Assembly (NCBI GenBank): GCA_000934665.2
Contig: KZ538674.1
Span: 1-54,955 of the forward strand
Length of the DNA stretch: 54,955 nucleotides
Direction of reading: 5' to 3'
Source of the DNA: Catajapyx aquilonaris
Taxonomy: Eukaryota
Below the pieces are notes generated by a model. That model ran no database searches. It was not told where the DNA came from and worked only from the letters and a program-made list of their open reading frames with translations. How positions within the stretch are numbered: position 1 is the stretch's first letter; every line of letters begins with the position of its first letter. This document shows, one piece after another, positions 3,238-54,638 of this stretch. Made by a program: the position numbers and the translations under genes.

Positions 3238-4824
3238 AGAAAAGAAGGTCTGAGGATCCAGTCAGCTTCAAAAGTATCGATCATTCTTCCAAAACTGACT
3301 TCAGACTGATTTAGAGTGTCCTAATGGTTTTCCTGCAGCTTTTTGGACCTTGGCCCGTATGGACATTCCAGACAGGCCATGGGAAAAACTTTGGTAGGCA
3401 TAATTTCCTTTCGTCTTGGGCACCGTCCAAGAAATGAGTGCATATAGTAGGCGTGGTCAGGGATTCGTCTGACCTAGAATGTTGGAGCGTCTGAGCAAAA
3501 GGACACATTTGAATCAAGTTTAACAAATCAATATGTAGAGGTTAATTGCCCAAAAATTAAAAATTGCCTGAATACATTATATCCATTAATTTGTAAATGA
3601 TGAAAGTTATTGTTTCTGGCATATTAAGAATTTGTATGACCTTATGTGCCTGTACGAGTACTTGAGTTATTTTACTAATGAATGTTTCAGTTTTATGTGC
3701 ATGACATATTTGCCATTTTAATATGATAGTCTTTAGCATATTTTGTTTATGCTAGACCTCCCTCCGGTATAGATCATCATGATAGCAGATCAAATTTATT
3801 GATATTGGGGATGGTGCCATTAGGTTTAGGGTTATCAGACGTGAGGGTTGGATTTTGAAAGCTGTCTTTTTTTTTTCATCGCATCGGTGGTCAGGAATTA
3901 TTAATGTTAGTGTACGGATAAACCTGGTGACTGTGCTACACGGTCCAGTATGCATTAAGCTTATTATGAACTATCCCACTTTGCTGCATTGCAGATCTGT
4001 ATTGGAAAAATACCATGTTCAGCCAATTTTTCGATAAACCGAACTCTGATATGGGGTGGAAATAAGGTTGTGTTATTTAATGGCAAAAACTGGTTCATGA
4101 ATGTACTCGTTTTCACCTTGATAAAGCCTAATTGCAGCACTAACAAGTAAGTGCGCAGTAATAGATGTAGGTCAAGTGCTTTCCAGCCAGAAATTATACT
4201 GAAAACTATGAAGTTACTCCGAAGCTAATTTATTATATCCTCCCCATAGGCGGCATGTATCGATTATCCAGGAAAGTGCCTTCCGCCAGCTTAAATCGAC
4301 AATTATGAAACTGGTTTTACCCGTAAGAACTACCCGTGAAGTATCAAGTTTACAGGTGGCGAAGCTAACTGATGTCATTACCTGCCAGCTAGTTACGTGC
4401 ATCTCCGACTTTTCCAAACTGCCATTTATGATTGCTAGTTAACAAAAGCGTCAATTTCAATTTCACTCTCACAATGAATACGCATAGTTCCATATAATCA
4501 CATGATTGCTCAGCCTTTCTGTACTGGGTGTCTGGTCCATGTGTTTCCCAGTCTCTGTAACACCCGTTAGTAAATTCAGGGTACAAATCCGAGAGAGTTT
4601 CACGGACTTCATCAGTGCCGGAAATGTCGACTCCCAGATCACGTCCGGCACTTGAATTACAATACCACTCGACATCTGTATCAGGATCCCCTGGAGATCA
4701 TTTGTGAGGCTGTGCAAGTGGCTGCCAGGGCGAGTTCATGAAAATAAATAAGGCTCCATTGCATAACGGGGAGGTGCTGTATAAGGCTTGTGGTGGACGA
4801 AAGTTTGGGGGGGGGGGGGGGGGG

Positions 4825-5200
4825 NNNNNNNNNNNNNNNNNNNNNNNNNNNNNNNNNNNNNNNNNNNNNNNNNNNNNNNNNNNNNNNNNNNNNNNNNNNN
4901 NNNNNNNNNNNNNNNNNNNNNNNNNNNNNNNNNNNNNNNNNNNNNNNNNNNNNNNNNNNNNNNNNNNNNNNNNNNNNNNNNNNNNNNNNNNNNNNNNNNN
5001 NNNNNNNNNNNNNNNNNNNNNNNNNNNNNNNNNNNNNNNNNNNNNNNNNNNNNNNNNNNNNNNNNNNNNNNNNNNNNNNNNNNNNNNNNNNNNNNNNNNN
5101 NNNNNNNNNNNNNNNNNNNNNNNNNNNNNNNNNNNNNNNNNNNNNNNNNNNNNNNNNNNNNNNNNNNNNNNNNNNNNNNNNNNNNNNNNNNNNNNNNNNN
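4825..5200. other. Assembly gap (376 N) flanked by a G18 run and a C16 run
   Basis: N run; G tract at 4807-4824, C tract at 5201-5216. Confidence 0.99.
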
Positions 5201-6792
5201 CCCCCCCCCCCCCCCCAACCTCCTCTCCCATCAGCTCCCACCATTTTTTTTCTTTGGTTCCGGATTAAGTTTTTTTGCGAAAATATTTGAGGAAGAACTT
5301 GAGGCTTCGCCTTTATTAAAATGTCAGTAGCGATCAATTTGTTCCAATTAGTCTGGTTGGTGCAGTATTTGAATCAAAGGCTGGCTGTTCTGGAGGTAAT
5401 AGGAGCTTGAAAATTATTGTACTGCATTATGTTGAAAGAGGAAAAAAAAATCGTTAATTGTACAGGACATGTATTGGGACATGCACTAGAGAGCCTGAAT
5501 TGTAGAGTACTGAAAGCACTATAAATAAACCATTCCAGCCTGGAAATGTACATGGCGTTAAACCCTCCTCCTATTGGCATTTTTGTCATGTAAAAGGGCC
5601 ATACATGCATTACATGAATGGTCATTGGGATTTTTTTTAAAGCACTGCAATGTATTGTAAAGTTCACTTTAAAAAGATCGATATGCACAGTACGAAATAT
5701 AGAGTATGATCTAAATGCAGATTTTCCAGTAATATTCAAGCAATGTAACTAACGCACGCTCTTAATTAAACCAGGTTGAACCCTCCCAATGGCTATAAGA
5801 CCCCCCCAAACCCACCTTTCTGCCAATTTCACGAGCGTCTAGGTTCATGCTACATCCGTATAGGAACATAAATTAACCAGCCAGTAGTCCGCACTCTAAT
5901 TACTAGCGCACTTAACGTTCATTTTAAGGAGCCATCGGTTTCGCCCAGGAATTCGAATTCAGCTACTGCTATTAGCCCTGTTATAGAAAGACGATAGTGA
6001 AACTCACCGTGTGTGTTTTTTTATTTGGGTCGTAAAGCAGGCTCATAACGTACTTGCTCAGCTGGCCATTAGAAATGAGCGAATGAGTCTACATTCCTGG
6101 CCCTTTTTTTGGTTTGAAAAAAAGGGGGCGATAGCTGTTATACAGCTTGCCTATACTAGGAAAAGAAAAACGACGTTCCATCCAATATCCGACGTGAGGT
6201 GGAAGTTTGGGATAAATCCCTCCAGGCAACCAGAAAGGTGGGATAGGAAGAGAGAAGAGAGGGCTTTCCTACCAAAAAATGAGAACAAGTTCGATTTTTT
6301 TTTTTTTTGTTGAAGGTTTTCATACTTCTCTAGCCCTTTATTGTTCCGCAGGTTATCTGCAGTTATTGAAAAACAATGGTGCTTGAGTGTGGTGGGTGTT
6401 GGAAGTATATAGGACATAGTGAGTGAAAAACTATACAAACGAAATTTTGTGCAGGTCGGATCAAAATGAACAATTTTGCATATTGTGCGTCCCCTTGATT
6501 TTATCTGCTTTTTTTGAATGAATGACATTCGCAAACAAATGGGTAGCGTAATCCGTTGAGTTTAATCTGTGACAATACAATGCGGAATTCATTGATTTTG
6601 CTGTCCACCGGTTTGTATTGCTCCATATAAATTGCGGTGGAGTGCATCATACACCTTACTGGATGTAATTGCAGGACATTTTTTCCCCCGTAATTAAAAC
6701 GGCGGTCAGTGACACTGCTCTAAACCTGACCTCGCTCTATACAGAGAACGGATGAAAAGAGCTTGAAAAATTCGAGTGAAGTATGAGAGTTG

Positions 6793-9224: not shown

Positions 9225-10403
9225 TACGTATCTACACCATTTGAATTGGTTGAATCGCATACTACCTGCCACGAATATTCTGTGGTTATTTTGAAAAAAC
9301 ACCGTACTTTTTCGAACCTATGTTTGGCTAATTTAAGCAGTTCAGTCACTATGTTTATAGAGGAGGTGTAGGATGACAGTTTAATGTGCTTAATTTTCTA
9401 TAACACGCAAACTTTTGGCGTTTTTCATAAGGCCGCTTCCTCAATCTGAGCTCTTTAAAAATCACTTTTAAAGGATTCGTGCGAGCCTCCCCCTCCGTTC
9501 GAGAGAGTCGAAGAAGAAATATGGGACTTTCGCTGCTGTGAATATAAGGAATGGGGAAAATTGCAGGAGAGATTCCCCCCATAAGGCCCTTTGGAGTACG
9601 TGTGGACGTTACAAACATGCAATATCTGGACCGGTCGCGAAGGGCAAAATTACATTGGAATTTTTCTCCTGGCTGCCAAGAAAGAAACGACTTTATAAAC
9701 TAGTTTCAATCTTCAGTGAAGTAAAAAAAAAACTGTTGTCTGATTAGAATTTATTGCCAATATTCCAGAGGTTTAATACGCTAAATGGCGTTCCCCGGAT
9801 ATTAAAAAAAGGGGAGGGAAAAGTGTGAAATTACCAGTTTTTCACATAACATGGCGGCTAGGTGTAAACTTCCCCACGAAGGTTATGAATTTCCAGTTAT
9901 TTTTTGGCCCACGGCTTCAGTTTAAGGGCGTTAATTTATGGATAATTCGTAGCTCCTCTTGATTAATTTTTTTAAAAATAAGCCATTGGGAGTCAAGGCT
10001 TATATGTAAATGTGTAAATGAGCAGTCAACTGAATATAGTGGCATGCGGTAATGTGGTGGTGAAAGTGTACGTAGTGTTGGGAATGGAATTGCGTGTTAC
10101 AGTACACTCTGCTTATGTAAATATGAAATCAAGTGGGTAACTTGGAGTCACATAATACAGTATTTCGTTATTTGCTTATACTGATTTGGCAACAGCCTGC
10201 GGTATCCACTGGGATTTGCTGTACAGCCACGGATGTCGACTGTTAAAATATAGTTAAAATATATGTGTTCTTTGTGGGATATGCTGGCTGGGATTTGAAT
10301 GTGTAGAGTGTAGATCCTAATTAACTGGTGCATACAATTAGACATCAGGAAGTGTATTGAATTTCCATGAATATTGAGGCGACTGTTTTCATGGTTTTTG
10401 TGA

Positions 10404-10480
10404 TACTAAAAATGCATTTTTATTCTTTGCAGGTAAGCTGCTGACGAACATGTACCGATTCCTGGTCATACAATGTAAGT
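10404..10480 (+). promoter_or_regulatory. Candidate recursive splice site (AG|GT at 10432/10433) with 42-nt exon-like segment 10433-10474 and downstream GTAAGT donor
   Basis: TACTAAA branch-like motif (10404-10410), TTTTTATTCTTTGCAG acceptor immediately followed by GTAAGC, and a second donor CAAT|GTAAGT at 10475. Confidence 0.6.
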
Positions 10481-13400
10481 TTAAGAATGGAACTATTTGA
10501 AAGCCTCCATATCTACATAATTTGCAAGGAGATGAACAATGGATGAATTCTGGCTGAGGATAATAAATGCAGCGTTGTACTAGAAATGGGCCTGAGGCTT
10601 ATCGGTATTCATAGCTTGCGAAACTCAATATGATGAGTATTTAATTTCAATGCGGGTTTTTTATTGCTACTGGCGGAGGCTGGATGACAGTCGAACATGT
10701 ATTCGCCTGCTGGGCAATTTTTTCGGAATTTAGTATACATATGTGTAGGTATTTAATATGGTCAGTACAAACGTGAAGTTAGGCCGCTGTGAAACACTGC
10801 TTCTCAGTACATACATGGCTATATCGCAGACGATAGTGACCTGATATATGTGGTATGTCAGAGACTGTGTAATTATCAATTATTAGGATATCGAAACGAT
10901 CCTTCATGAATGTCGCAGTATTCCGACCAGCTGTGTTTGTGCATCCAGTGAGAAGTACTGATTTATTTATTACTGTCCATAAATATTGCTGTTGCTCGTA
11001 TTTGGTGTGTGCGTTATTTGCCAACTCTCTCCGGTCAATCCAAATTGTTTCGGGGGGACCCTTCTGAAAATCACCCTGCCCTGAGGAAATTGCAATTAAA
11101 TTTATGGCATTACCGATCAGTGTCACAAATGGCTGCGGTTCCTATACCTTCCGAATTTGCTACACCCTGTTTGGTGATATAACGCGACAGCTTTATGATG
11201 ATTGATTATTCAATGTCACGCTGGATTACACAGCTACAAGTTGAATTTGCTGAATAATGGTTTTTACCACGAAACGATGAGTTACTGATGAGCTTGGAAG
11301 CGGAGGGAAATAAATTAGTCTTCAAAGAGCAGGTCGTGATTTGCCGAATTTTGAATTCCTCCGCTTATTTGGAGCCGTTTAGTCTGGTCCAATTGGCAAA
11401 AGAAAGTGAGCTTGAGCTCGATTGTTATTTGGATCGGAATTGTCAATTTGGTGTAATTGTGTATTAGCATTGATGGGCCGTCGATCTTCTGTGTTTGTAT
11501 TGGAAAATGTTCTGCGGTTTGCGTATCGTGTAATGTTTAATTCAGTACAAACAAACGGCGTTCCCGGCAGGCATCAACACTAGCGACGCTCTGCCGGCCG
11601 TAATGTGAAGCTGGATCGCGCCGCAGAAAACATTCCCTCCACAATATTGTGGTTAAGTCTACCCCTTGGGAACCGATGGAGTCGGAACGCGAACCTTCAG
11701 ACACGCAATTGTTTCCACTCCCAGGACTCAACCTGGATTTCCGAGACGGGATATATAGGAACCACCGGGTTAGATCCTGGAGATGAAGGTGTCCTCCCTT
11801 CCCCGTGTTGCGAAAACGTGACCATGAGGACCTGGAAATGGCCTGCCAAGCTGGCCAAACAAGACTTCGGTCGATAAGTGCGATGGAATTCTACCCAACC
11901 CTTGTGCCTCTCACACATTTCTACCACGGAAATCTGCCCAACAATCCCTGTTGTCAGAATTATTCTGAAACACCCTGTGAAATTTCAGCCCTTTGTTGGG
12001 GTATGTATATAGGATGACCCATCCTATAGCTTGGCCAAAGTTTCCGATGGCCTGAGGAGTCTCACTGTAGCTTTTTCATTCGCTTGTCAATATAATTAAG
12101 CGGAAAGGAAAGCTATCAGGTGTTGAATGGAGCATTTGGAGAGAGAGAGGATGGTTAGATAGAAGAAAAAGGGGGCGATGAGTTTTCCCAGAATGCCGAA
12201 AGCTATACCCCCTCCTGTTGGCTTGCGAAAAGGATTGATCAGGAGAAGTTACGGGGCTTATACGGGGAAAATGTTTTAGGGATTTTTTTTTTTTCTCTCT
12301 TCGTTGCTTCCAACCGGGTTCTTTTCTTTTAGGGGTAGTTACACGGTATACTCCAGACTTGAATCAATTTTGGGCTGGTTCATACAACTCCTGTTGCCTC
12401 AGGTGTTTTGAGGGGATGTAAATGGGTTGTTGAAACTGTCATGTTAAGTTTGGATGTAAGGGGAGTCAACTGTAGCTGGCAAACTGTATACGAGCAATTA
12501 TGCAGCGGCACAACGACCCATAAGGTACTTCATACAGTACACTTAACCCAGATATGGAAAGACATTTGTGGGCAGCACCACTGACATTATGTCACGGGGT
12601 GAGCATCATTTTGAAGATGCTATACTGCATAAGGCTTGTAGTGCCGGAAAGTTATGGGGCGCACAGTTTGCTGATGATGCTGCGGGGTTATTATGATCAA
12701 ATGGGGGGTACTCTGCAGCATACGGATGGCGATGATTAGGGAAGTTATCTGCACCATTACCTACACTGCTGGTCCCAAATAGAAATGCATGAAACTGGAC
12801 TGGGCACAACTATTTTGGTGGGGAAGGACACACCTCATCATAATATTGCGGCTAATGCGGGTTTGTGCAGGAAAGTAATCGCATCATATGTCCCCAAGTT
12901 GCTTTTCGAACGATGTTCAGTTTTTCTTGAATGGTATATGATTATTGATCTGATGTGAGGTACAATGGCCGCTGTTGGGTGGGATCTAGGGGTGAACAAA
13001 CTTTTGTGCAACTGTGAGATTATGGTGTCCGGTGTCCTTTAAACTTTCGGATAAGTCATGACGCTTTGCCACTTAGATCGTCAGCTTGGCACCTACTCCA
13101 AACTTAAGAAAACTGGTGAGCTTGTGATATCTCAATTTGGCATGAACGCCTGTCGTCGGGACGCCTGCTGATATGACCCTACTTTTTTTTGGAGGAATCC
13201 CTGACAGAGAGTTCAGGATGAGCAATGGTCTGGCTATTCATCCCTAGGGGCATGCAACCCAGTTTTATTTGGGCTTCTGGACTCTTATCAGAAGCCTGAC
13301 TTCCCCTTTTTTGACGCATCAAAGTGGACGTTTGTCATCCTGGAGCGACGAAGGAGTTTGAACACACAAAAAAAGCTGGTAAAAAATAGTCATTCTCGCC

Positions 13401-17188: not shown

Positions 17189-17260
<72 letters not shown>

Positions 17261-17277
17261 CAACAACAATAATAATA
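17102..17277 (+). repeat. (TAA)n/(CAA)n microsatellite interrupted by a 71-bp element
   Basis: AAT repeats at 17102-17119 and a long TAA tract at about 17189-17277 with a few CAA units; this explains the poly-Leu ORF 17096..17317(-). Confidence 0.95.
17120..17190. mobile_element. 71-bp internally deleted TIR element (hAT-like)
   Basis: CAGGGTGTCTAGC ... GCTAGACACTCTA termini, internal CTGGAAA repeats, flanked by ATAATAAT on both sides (8 bp, but uninformative inside a microsatellite). Confidence 0.6.
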
Positions 17278-21494: not shown

Positions 21495-21735
21495 CAGTGT
21501 TGGACATTAATCCGTCATACTGCTTGCGACATTTTCTGTTGCGGCAGAGAAGTGACAGAGTGTGAGCCAGGTGTGAGCCGTGCGAGTAAGAAGAAGTAGG
21601 CCTTGAGTGACGTCACCGGCTGGGGGCAATGGCGAAATGGCTTGTCCCCAGCCAGTGACGTCACCCAAGGCCTGCCATTTCTTACTCTCACATCGGAAAA
21701 TGTCGCTAGCAGTACGGAATTAATGTCCAGCATTG
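21495..21735. mobile_element. Palindromic MITE family A, copy 3
   Basis: TA|CAGTGTTGGACATTAAT ... ATTAATGTCCAGCATTG|TA; same internal palindrome with two TGACGTCA; deletion in the right arm. Confidence 0.92.
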
Positions 21736-35893: not shown

Positions 35894-36950
35894 TCATCCA
35901 GATGTAATTACGAGAATTGCTGAAAAGCTTGAAGCTGCCAGATTGCTCAATTTTCTTTCCTTAGAAGCCAACTCGATCCGTCAATTGGCACCTCAAGATT
36001 GTGTTGGAAATAAGACAGAAATCCAGTAGAAAATCCTTTGTCACGGAAGGATTCTCGGAACAAAAAGGGGGGAAGGTGGGGATATACGTTTCGACGGCCA
36101 CTCACAAGGAGCAACCTACCTTTTTTTCCGTATTTTATCCGGAAGCTCACCTCCCAAGAGGCAGTTGGAGGTCTGCCCCAGTTCGGCAATCAGGAGGGAT
36201 TTGGGCCGTGGTTGCGGAGAAGAATGGCACCGACGTGAGAGACATGTTCCTATAGAGAGAGAAAAAAAAGAAGGAATGGGGNGGGGCATTTCCTCCAAGT
36301 TAGGATGGATCTCATGTCGGGGGGCTCTGAATCTCAACGAGAGGAGATGGCCCCGGATCTTTTCCCACCCTGCCACCCTCACTTTCCGGATTCTTCCTCT
36401 TTTCTTCGCCCACTGGAAATAAGCTTCATTTGCTACTGATGAAATGGGAGCTGAACGGAATTTGTTGCTGGAGGTTGCTAGAGGAGGGGGATTTTCACTT
36501 GGTGTACTCCCACCATGTCTGTCGTATATAGGCGACCGATTTGGGTCGTGGCCAAATTTGAAGAGGATCGATTGTTGTTTCGTGACCTGTTGGTTCGGAA
36601 GTAATGAGCGTGGAACTGCGGCATTTGGACGCCATGTTGGCTCCACGTGGAAGATGCCTTTTTTTGTTTTTTTGTTTTTTTGTTTTTTTGTCAGGCGCTT
36701 ATGTGCGGCCAAGGGATTGGTTCTTATGGTGGGGCTTATGGCAAATCATTAGCCCTATGATATGTTGAGGGTGAGCACAAAGCATCAACATTATACTTGC
36801 ACAAGTGCAGAAAATACTGACAAAATGTAAAACGCTTTGGGAAGAAATGGTCCATTGTCACTTTGTAGGATTTAAGCTCGCTCTAGTGTGTTGTAAGTTG
36901 TCAGTAAGCGATCCTCTTATGTTTAGGAGGATTTAATTCATGCGCGCATA

Positions 36951-36986
36951 TTAATCCTCTCTATTTTTCTCTCCTTCCAGGTAAGA
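36951..36986 (+). promoter_or_regulatory. Candidate recursive splice site / strong splice acceptor (AG|GT at 36980/36981)
   Basis: TTAAT branch-like motif, long pyrimidine tract CCTCTCTATTTTTCTCTCCTTC, CAG immediately followed by GTAAGA. Confidence 0.65.
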
Positions 36987-37831
36987 CCCGAGCCTCTTCA
37001 ACCCGACATGATGGTCAACATCCAGCAAGAGCCGTTTAAAAGGTCTCATTTCCTAAACGAGTTGCAATTTTAATTGGATTGACAGTTTCCATTAGTGAGA
37101 TAGAACTTGGTCGGAGATGAAAGGAAGGCTGAATCGATTCGGCAGGGCACATGTGTGTTAAAGGCAGATGTAATGTTACAAGGGGGTGGGGTTCGGGAGT
37201 GTGCATGTGAACCGCTAAGGGCTGGCAGTCTCATGTGATAAATGCAATGCATGCATTATCATGGCCGGTAATGACGCAGCTAAATATTGATGAATGAACG
37301 GCGGTAACACTCATCAATTAAAATGATAATTGGCGTCAACACATGCAATTTTTATCATGGTAGACGACCCCCACGTTTTCGACCCTATAGATAACTATGC
37401 AACTCTGCGTTTGATTTATGCCCCTAAACGACTTCGATAAGACTTTCCCCCAGCGCCGAAATCATTTCCAAGAGAGAGGATGACGAGGACGGGTCATAAT
37501 GGCGGCAGCAAAGTCTGTTGGGGAAACTCCCTGTGTTAATACAGGTATTCCGTAGTGGGTGGGTTGTGTATAGGACTAAAGCCACAGCCCAGTTTCTGCG
37601 GTAGAGCCAGCTAACGATCCAATGTTCCTTAGTCCCTTTTGAGATGAGTCCAGGACACTGTCGAGTCCCAGCAGGATTTGCGCCAGAGCGGATTATGCAT
37701 AAGGTTCCTGGAGCTCAGTCAAGAACCTGGAGGGGGGAAAAAATGCGATATTATCTAACCAGATGACAGGATTGAAATTGTAATGCTTTAATTTATAACA
37801 AGATTCTCGGAAGCGGGATGAGAGTATTGTA

Positions 37832-48526: not shown

Positions 48527-48761
48527 CAGTGTTGGTCATACTGCTTGCGACATCTGTTGCGGCAGAAGTGCATATCGAAGTGTGAGCCGTGCGAGTAAAA
48601 GGTAAAAGGTAAAAGTGTGAGTAAAAGGTAAATCGTAAAAGTGCGAGTGACGTCACCCAAAGGCTACCATTTCTTACTCGCACGGCTCTATCACTTCGAT
48701 ATGCACGTCTGCCGCATCAGAAAATGTCGCTAGCTGTATGACGGAATTAATGCCCAGCACT
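48527..48761. mobile_element. Palindromic MITE family A, copy 4 (centre deleted and replaced by repetitive filler)
   Basis: TA|CAGTGTTGG-TCATACTGCTTGCGACAT ... AATGTCGCTAGCTGTATGACGGAATTAATGCCCAGCACT; the central hairpin is missing. Confidence 0.88.
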
Positions 48762-50792: not shown

Positions 50793-51158
50793 TATGAAAG
50801 ACTTTACCATAGGATTTGGTATAGTTACCTTTGGAATAACCTACCTATACATATACATACATTTATTATGTTTGCATACCTGTAACATGGAGTATATTGC
50901 ATGTGCATGAAGTCCCTATTTTCTCTCTCGATCCCCGATTTCTCCCTCCCCGATCTCTCCCTCGAACGATGCTACGTCCGGGGTTCTTGCTTTCCTTCCT
51001 TTCGCCTCTGCCGCCAAGGATGACCTCGGAGGTCAAGTCCAATGTGCTAAAAACCTTCCCACTTAAAAACTACCCCTAATGATCCCCCTGGGGCATACGT
51101 CGAGGCCTCCGTATTGATTTGCATCGGGAACGCATCGACATATACGTCTTGAAATATA

Positions 51159-52092
51159 CTTGCTCTGATCTGAAAATATTGGGACACCCCCAAAAAATGG
51201 AGTGGTGGGGTTATACACAGGATGTGATAAAAAGTTTCCATTAAGATTATCTGGACTTTAGAATGGATAATTATGAATAGTAACAATTGAGCTAGGAGGA
51301 TACCAAATTTGAAGTTCATTTGACAGTTAACAACTGAAATAAATACGATTATACCTTGGACAGTGAATTTCTGTGGGGTCTGGTAAAAATTGCTGCCACT
51401 CTGTTTATTTCTTACTTAGCGGGATGTAAATGTTGATAATGAACCTGAGGGGCCGCACAAACCCAAAAACAATTATGACATTAATTACAAAAAATCTAGC
51501 ACAAAATTAAAAAATATTTATCATGGCTTGCAGATGTGCCCTTTTCTGTGCATTTTTGAATTAAGGAATATTTAAAGCCATTTTACTTTAATTGCAATGA
51601 AATTTTTTATCATAGCACATTGGACTGAGTTCTAGATAAACAATACTATCACATTTTAATTTATTAATAAATAACACCGTTAAATGTGGTACAGCCAAGT
51701 GTATCAATTTCTGAAAAAATCCACTTGCGATAAATATTTTTAAATTTTGTGCTAGATTTTTTGTAATTAATGTCATAACTGTTTTTGGGTTTGTGCGGCC
51801 CCTCAGGTTCATTATCAACATTTACATCCCGCTAAGTAAGAAATAAACAGAGTGGCAGCAATTTTTACCAGACCCCACAGAAATTCACTGTCCAAGGTAT
51901 AATCGTATTTATTTCAGTTGTTAACTGTCAAATGAACTTCAAATTTGGTATCCTCCTAGCTCAATTGTTACTATTCATAATTATCCATTCTAAAGTCCAG
52001 ATAATCTTAATGGAGACTTTTTATCACATCCTGTGTATAACCCCACCACTCCATTTTTTGGGGGTGTCCCAATATTTTCAGATCAGGGCAAG
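51159..52092. mobile_element. 934-bp foldback-type non-autonomous DNA transposon with about 364-bp TIRs
   Basis: Arms 51159-51522 and 51729-52092 are about 99% reverse-complementary (4 mismatches seen by eye), with a 206-bp AT-rich spacer, flanked by (TA)TA on both sides; explains the mirrored ORFs 51047..51319(-) and 51932..52129(+). Confidence 0.95.
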
Positions 52093-52203
52093 TATATTAG
52101 ATATATTTGTAGGACACTTCCACAGTTAGATTTTTAGTTATTCGTATGCTGTAGTAATAGTAATTGGAAACAATAATAATGAAAAACTTTGGCTTATTGT
52201 TTT

Positions 52204-53527: not shown

Positions 53528-53585
53528 GGACAAGCGAATCCCGAGAAAACCTGCTCGAAAGTTATTGAACTATTTTTTTGCTTAA

Positions 53586-54087
53586 AGGGACACTCCACTC
53601 AAAATACAAGTTGATCTGTAAAAATCTGGCAAAAAATCCTGATTCCGGTGATACCATCCGTTTATCTATGAGACGAACGGTAATGTCAGGGGAAGAGACG
53701 GAAGTCGGAAAAAATTCGAGGTCTGTTCGAGAGTGGCGCCGCCTGACCACCTGGCCAAGTTAGGCGACGTTGGATAGTAGCGCCGCCCTTCCCAACGGCG
53801 ACTTGGATAAGTTGCCTGCGGGTATGGGGATCCGTGGGGATCTGGTTGTGTCCGAAGCCAACTTCCCCTAGTGCCCGTTGGGAAGGGCGGCGCTACTATC
53901 CAACGTCGCCTAACTTGGCCAGGTGGCCAGGCGGCGCCACTCTCGAACAGACCTCGAATTTTTTCCGACTTTCGTCTCTTCCCCTGACATTACCGTTCGT
54001 CTCAGAGATAAACGGATGGTATCACCGGAATCAGGATTTTTTGTCTGATTTTTACAGATCAACTTGTATTTTGAGTGGAGTGTCCCT
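53586..54087. mobile_element. 502-bp palindromic non-autonomous transposon, Kolobok-like (TTAA TSD, AGG...CCT ends)
   Basis: TTAA|AGGGACACTCCACTCAAAATACAAG ... CTTGTATTTTGAGTGGAGTGTCCCT|TTAA; about 210-bp near-perfect arms, then degenerate arms toward the centre. Purine (RR) termini with TTAA fit Kolobok rather than piggyBac (YY). Confidence 0.92.
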
Positions 54088-54638
54088 TTAATATTGTAAA
54101 CCTGACGCTCCATTCACGAGCAAAACAGTCCCTCACAAAAAAAAACCACAAGCGATTTACGAAAAGTCCTTAGGAACAGACGGCAGTGTTTTACAACCGT
54201 GCCTTAAAAATAAAAAAAGAACGTTGGCGTAATCCAAAGCAGACGGGTAGGACGCATCTCTAGAAAACCGTTCCTAACGAACCATCTCCCAGTTGGTGGG
54301 CGGGACATAGATTATGCACATTACGAGCTATTCGAGCGCAGGAGGAAACCCTTTTTTTTTGCTGTCAGACTCTTTACTTTATGGCTCCAAAGTCCGAAAG
54401 AGAAGCTCCTGACGTGTAAAACTCCCTTCGGATTAAGTATCCGGATTACTTCAGGATCACTTGAGGGTAAAGCAGGGTGGTTAGGGAATAAAATTTCCTT
54501 TTTTGCGGGCGGCCATTTGCAATCCAGGCGCCCGATGCGTAATTTCGAGACGTGGATGGGCGAGCACCGGGCGCTTTGGCGCTTTGGCACCCTATCATCG
54601 CGGATCCGGCACGCATGCGCTCTCTGCGCTACGCCNAA

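Follow-up and report, generated by a model that had tools for sequence, protein, structure and literature searches.

A candidate recursive splice site with a 42-nt RS-exon and a second ratchet-point-like site in intron-like DNA

RNA evidence for recursive splicing comes mainly from Drosophila and vertebrates. Duff et al. (10.1101/006163) report a TT at positions -5/-6 for 196 of 197 ratchet points of Drosophila, compared with 43.76% of all introns, and recursive segments of flies that measure 2,596-63,580 bp, with a mean of 17,953 bp. The host introns of fly ratchet points span 11-133 kb. The cryptic RS-exon that follows a ratchet point is described by Joseph et al. 2021 (PMC8605326) as short (~50 nt) and provided with its own donor, and its recognition is needed before the first splicing step. 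The same source calls cryptic RS-exons 'generally out of frame' and the ratchet-point donor generally stronger, in flies and mammals; this greater strength underlies zero-nt splicing. In flies, conservation peaks sharply at the SA|SD core of ratchet points, and the bodies of the RS-exons are poorly conserved. Expressed RS-exons are known from the Ubx gene, whose microexons m1 and m2 of 51 nt lie in an intron of ~73 kb (Hatton 1998, as cited in PMC8605326). In vertebrates (Sibley 2015; Blazquez 2018), the RS-exon is defined first, and the rebuilt 5' splice site then competes with the downstream one. For other invertebrates, an enrichment at the sequence level was reported in 2009 for mosquito, bee, beetle and sea urchin (PMC2773006, Table 2).

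We analysed a stretch of 54,955 nt, hereafter the window, in which the original prediction had pointed to a recursive splice site on the + strand (site 1). It had described a branch-like TACTAAA, a T-rich tract and a CAG directly followed by GTAAGC, with a perfect GTAAGT 42 nt further downstream. All these elements were found to the base; the GTAAGT occupies 10475-10480, and the segment in front of it (10433-10474) measures 42 nt. The RS-exon architecture claimed for the site is likewise present, as the acceptor adjoins a regenerated donor and is followed by a short segment with a donor of its own. Site 1 consists of the following features:

10379..10430, + strand: AG-free zone of 52 nt on the 5' side of the acceptor AG; the next AG in the upstream direction stands at 10377
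10404..10410, + strand: branch-point-like TACTAAA, with the candidate branch A at 10409, 23 nt before the G of the 3' splice site
10415-10429, + strand: T-rich tract CATTTTTATTCTTTG, 12/15 pyrimidines, separated from TACTAAA by an A-rich gap
10430-10432, + strand: CAG acceptor with TT at -6/-5 (core TTGCAG)
10433..10438, + strand: regenerated 5' splice site GTAAGC, the candidate ratchet-point donor
10433..10474, + strand: candidate RS-exon of 42 nt (3 x 14), frame-preserving
10475..10480, + strand: candidate RS-exon 5' splice site AAT|GTAAGT, matching 6/7 scored consensus positions

Acceptor and donor of site 1 together read TTCTTTGCAG|GTAAGC. The branch-like motif is imperfect, having an A after the branch A and not the usual pyrimidine, and the tract is moderate when taken over a longer span (13/20 pyrimidines at -23..-4). 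The 12-mer TTGCAGGTAAGC, which forms the TTGCAG|GTAAGC core, occurs once on the + strand of the window and zero times on the - strand. Within 200 nt downstream of site 1, AAT|GTAAGT is the only donor-like GT that scores above 3/7. The rebuilt GTAAGC matches the consensus at 5/6 positions versus 6/6 for the downstream GTAAGT, a comparison that covers the intronic halves, the exonic half of the rebuilt donor being set by the upstream exon.

A second ratchet-point-like site, absent from the original prediction, was found at 36981 on the + strand, 26,548 nt downstream of site 1. Its features (site 2) are:

36930..36980, + strand: AG-free zone (49 nt), pyrimidine tract, and a CAG acceptor whose positions -6/-5 are TT
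36954, + strand: A of the branch-like motif TTAAT, 27 nt upstream of the junction
36981..36986, + strand: regenerated donor GTAAGA, with the junction CAG|GTAAGA

Acceptor and donor of site 2 read CTCCTTCCAG|GTAAGA, and CAGGTAAG at 36978-36985 is the other copy of this motif on the + strand. Pyrimidines take up 19/20 positions at -23..-4 and 14/15 at -18..-4; only 0.6% of the 20-nt windows on the + strand contain at least 18 pyrimidines. Within 120 nt downstream of site 2 there was no strong donor; AAG|GTCTCA, 62 nt away, and TTA|GTGAGA, 114 nt away, both score 3/7. The 48-aa frame at 36927-37070 after site 2 yielded no candidate among proteins of up to 2000 aa. Of the two, site 2 makes the stronger ratchet-point candidate. 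Metagenome contigs scanned for exact copies of the site 1 and site 2 cores gave 0 and 0 matches.

Two more motifs of the same kind, GTAAGT (36893) and GTAAGC (36904), are present on the + strand, where they precede the site 2 acceptor by 88 and 77 nt. Three GTAAG thus fall within 94 nt around site 2, versus 37 on the whole + strand (55 kb). Dual-specificity AG|GURAG sites, which can be used as donor or acceptor, are known to exist. We nevertheless consider it highly improbable that the observed motifs reflect another + strand feature, namely the end of a short intron running from the GTAAGT at 36893 or the GTAAGC at 36904 to the site 2 acceptor, or a dual donor/acceptor site. The two upstream GTAAG are what speaks for this explanation, but their exonic sides (GTT| and TCA|) are non-consensus, and the 100 nt on the 5' side of site 1 are free of donor-like motifs. 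Moreover, we estimate the chance of such a GTAAG cluster among 37 sites at ~0.08, and hence the cluster is not significant.

The locus resembles the Drosophila ratchet points with cryptic RS-exons (Burnette 2005; Duff 2015; Joseph 2018, 2021; Pai 2018) in several respects. These are the juxtaposed (Y)nNCAG|GTAAG, the TT at -5/-6, donors of the forms GTAAGC and GTAAGA, a short segment that lies downstream and has its own donor, a spacing of tens of kb between sites, and non-coding surroundings. The spacing of 26,548 nt between sites 1 and 2 falls in the range of fly recursive segments, and the 42-nt candidate RS-exon at site 1 fits the published length of ~50 nt. In the table of Drosophila recursive sites from Pai et al. 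2018 (PMC6110457, supplement 5, 539 rows), AGGTAAGC occurs 43 times, AGGTAAGT 37 times, AGGTGAGT 51 times and AGGTAAGA 7 times, while the site 1 core TTGCAGGTAAGC is found in 21 of the 539 rows. A hand tally of 47 of these 539 rows gave 15 GTGAGT, 13 GTAAGT, 11 GTAAGC, 3 GTATGT, 2 GTAAGA and 3 other donors. Because GTAAGC is frequent in this table, the C at +6 of the site 1 donor is typical and does not represent a defect. Both GTAAGC and GTAAGA are documented ratchet-point donors.

We compared the two sites with chance expectations. The bare 7-mer AGGTAAG occurs twice on the + strand and twice on the - strand, versus ~3.4 expected in a uniform 55-kb sequence (our own arithmetic), and is not beyond chance. 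Likewise, plain exon-like triples of an acceptor, an open frame and a donor are common, with 10 on the + strand and 17 on the - strand. The rare element is the AG|GTAAG juxtaposition, i.e. a good acceptor abutting a good donor. This composite was defined as YAG|GTRAG with at least 12/15 pyrimidines at -18..-4, a threshold chosen after site 1 had been seen, and was counted in 1000 order-1 and 1000 order-4 Markov simulations. The simulations gave an expectation of 0.076 (order-1) and 0.079 (order-4) sites per strand, whereas two were observed on the + strand and none on the - strand; the probability of at least two composite sites was 0 and 0.002. When a GTRAGT at 21-106 nt downstream was added, 0.001-0.002 sites were expected and one was observed, namely site 1. 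An analytic estimate agrees with these results, as the + strand has 48 acceptor-like sites and the chance that GTRAG comes next is 0.001-0.002 (3/2843 when pooled; Markov-1 gives 0.0020). With looser cut-offs of 10/15 or 11/15 pyrimidines, the number of acceptor-like sites increases to 244 or 114 and the expectation rises to ~0.4 or ~0.2 (our own arithmetic, at ~0.0015 per site). Two sites on one strand are still unusual under these looser thresholds. Hence, the sequence anatomy of the sites and their statistical excess are both observed, and the composite architecture is more than chance.

Two further features were also compared with the acceptor-like sites of the window. Both sites have TT at -6/-5, which is found in 12/48 acceptor-like sites on the + strand and 22/66 on the - strand. 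An AG-free zone of at least 49 nt precedes 8/48 of these sites on the + strand and 10/66 on the - strand (~16%).

These counts bear on the explanation that the two sites are chance pseudo-sites, that is, motifs that drifted together in T-rich non-coding DNA and are left unused by the spliceosome or used as noise only. The explanation draws on the chance frequency of AGGTAAG, with two copies per strand, and on the many exon-like segments of both strands. Furthermore, site 1 was picked as the best-looking site in 55 kb, and the thresholds were post hoc. We consider it rather unlikely, however, in view of the simulated probability of two pyrimidine-rich YAG|GTRAG on one strand and a - strand control free of any such site. 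The TT at -6/-5 and the AG-free zones of ~50 nt at both sites also argue against it, as does the perfect GTAAGT at 42 nt from site 1, with its low composite expectation.

Published densities provide a second yardstick. Across 13 animals, the strands complementary to large introns carry ~0.1 RP-sites per 100 kb (PMC2773006, Table 2). Sense-strand densities per 100 kb in the same study are 2.2 in fruit fly, 1.03 in mosquito, 0.81 in beetle, 0.54 in sea urchin and 0.48 in bee, whereas the large introns of vertebrates have almost no sense-strand excess (ratios of 0.9-1.5). The mosquito, beetle, bee and sea urchin of Shepard 2009 (PMC2773006) share with our window an excess on one strand, which amounts here to two sites in 55 kb versus none on the complement. 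Two sites in 55 kb match the sense-strand densities and not the background, with the qualification that the published sites were scored by a position matrix, given as a figure, with an 80% threshold, so that our counts are not on that scale.

The window is eukaryotic and animal-like, and as a whole it looks like an intron or other non-coding DNA. Its GC content is ~43%, and no CpG island was detected in it. None of the 351 stop-to-stop ORFs of at least 60 aa had a Pfam match above the cut-off. The sole Pfam hit, zf-CCCH_PARP12 at 9458-9649 on the - strand, was rejected as sub-threshold (17.9 bits versus a cut-off of 27). Over the whole window, Rfam at the gathering threshold returned no family and ARAGORN no tRNA.

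The + strand has an excess of T over A (+0.035) and of G over C (+0.073) in 11/11 bins of 5 kb. This persistent skew suggests a single direction of transcription or replication across the window, and it could also stem from replication. Human and mouse introns show an enrichment of G and T on their non-template strand (PMC10030826), while Drosophila introns have, on the coding strand, T>A but C>G (PMC5786239). As T>A is common to both published patterns, the T>A skew weakly favours the + strand as the sense strand under either of them. The G>C skew, likewise weakly, favours the + strand if the mammal-like pattern applies, but in a fly-like organism it would point to the opposite strand. Since fly introns have the reverse G>C skew, the source is probably no drosophilid. 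The numbers of PAS, donor-like and branch-like motifs on the two strands were dropped as evidence, as the differences were about those predicted from the base skew (our own arithmetic).

The segment between the two donors of site 1 deserves separate consideration. The original prediction had described these 42 nt as open in one phase, and the segment is indeed open, only when read as GT|AAG..., where it encodes KLLTNMYRFLVIQ. The other two phases are stopped by a TGA at codon 4 and a TAA at codon 1. Inclusion of the 42 nt would therefore bring in a stop codon in two of three phases, as with vertebrate RS-exons. In contrast to fly cryptic RS-exons, which are generally out of frame and have the weaker donor, the candidate described here keeps the frame, with a donor that equals or surpasses the rebuilt one.

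Accordingly, the segment may act as an alternative exon. It could even be an ordinary small exon, i.e. a constitutive or alternative 42-nt cassette (coding, UTR or in a non-coding RNA) that is spliced conventionally and starts with GTAAG by accident. The length in multiples of three, the phase that stays open through 14/14 codons and the strong downstream donor are in line with such a cassette. Moreover, expressed exons that start with a donor do exist, as exemplified by the two Ubx microexons (PMC8605326), and thousands of annotated mammalian RS-exons have been reported (PMC6224609). Nevertheless, we regard this explanation as distinctly improbable. A stretch of 42 nt is open in at least one of its three phases with a chance of ~90% (our own arithmetic), an accidental GTAAG start is rare, and the presence of a second such site 26.5 kb away lowers the odds further. 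No other coding signal was found in the window. The 40-aa stop-to-stop frame at 10378-10497 had one word-sharing candidate and no match at E<=10 among proteins of 71-2000 aa, which argues weakly against a coding exon and carries little weight given this length limit and an organism that is maybe unannotated.

A close known counterpart of a retained segment is found in the Ubx microexons. Like the 42-nt segment, they have a length that is a multiple of three and a donor motif at their start, and because of this motif a small exon of the Ubx type can be kept or re-spliced away. The first full codon of the 42-nt segment in the GT|AAG phase is AAG (Lys). The peptides of the Ubx microexons also start with Lys. 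Beyond that, KLLTNMYRFLVIQ presumably has no likeness to these peptides, and we tentatively rejected homology of the segment to the Ubx microexons.

On balance, we favour the reading that the junction 10432|10433 functions as a ratchet point followed by an RS-exon of 42 nt, located on the + strand in a long intron that would span most or all of the window. The 42-nt segment would first be recognised as a small exon by means of the branch region, the T-rich tract, the CAG and its own donor GTAAGT (10475). The upstream exon would then be joined to 10433, by which the first intron segment would leave as a lariat and a donor ...|GTAAGC would be rebuilt. If the rebuilt donor is used, the 42 nt would be excised together with the following segment and be absent from the mRNA; if the downstream donor is used instead, they would be retained as an insert of 14 codons. 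The following ratchet point would be site 2 at 36981, at a distance of 26,548 nt. In this mechanism we infer that the strand is transcribed, in which order the steps occur and what becomes of the 42 nt.

Full skipping of the segment is not predicted, as the downstream GTAAGT is perfect and the rebuilt donor has a C at +6, whereas the ratchet-point donor of published systems is generally the stronger one. With a strong downstream donor and a preserved frame, the 42 nt may, if the site is functional, stay in some of the transcripts in a Ubx-like manner, and these two properties do not constitute an argument for chance.

The CpG observed/expected ratio of the window is 0.77. This exceeds the level typical of vertebrates. 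We take this ratio and a G>C skew that differs from the fly intron pattern as grounds for a bolder reading, which we hold to be doubtful. According to this reading, the animal is neither a drosophilid nor a vertebrate, its giant introns are removed by ratchet points of the fly type with TT at -6/-5, and site 1 is a Ubx-like expressed RS-microexon that provides an optional insert of 14 residues. If it were true, the TT signal and the stepwise removal of introns would have a greater age and a wider distribution than the two lineages with RNA evidence suggest.

If real, site 1 adds to a known class of recursive sites, for which a sequence-level enrichment outside flies has already been published. 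If the sites are used, they offer two precise and testable positions in a non-model genome. Moreover, site 1 would then provide nearly matched rebuilt and downstream donors, a situation in which the competition model predicts regulated removal versus retention of a frame-preserving microexon. If they are unused, they remind us how splice-like non-coding DNA can appear.

Several other features of the window were recorded. An assembly gap of 376 N (4825-5200) is flanked by 18 G on its left and 16 C on its right (span 4807-5216), and seven more N runs, of which six are single Ns and one is 5 long, lie in or beside runs of G or C. These N runs at homopolymers look like an artefact of assembly or polishing. 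Two foldbacks were found near the end of the window, one at 51153-52098 with arms of 370 nt that are 99% complementary and 206 nt apart, the other at 53582-54091 with arms of 240 nt that are 95% complementary and 30 nt apart. Neither contains a Pfam-recognisable ORF, and both may be non-autonomous foldback or MITE-like elements. An interspersed repeat family occurs in both orientations at 250-504, 2569-2851, 21622-21692 and 48686-48761, in pieces of 60-113 nt with 74-92% identity, and no tRNA-like part was detected in it by Rfam and ARAGORN. Finally, a (TAA)n microsatellite with ~30 copies and 97% matches extends over 17189-17277.
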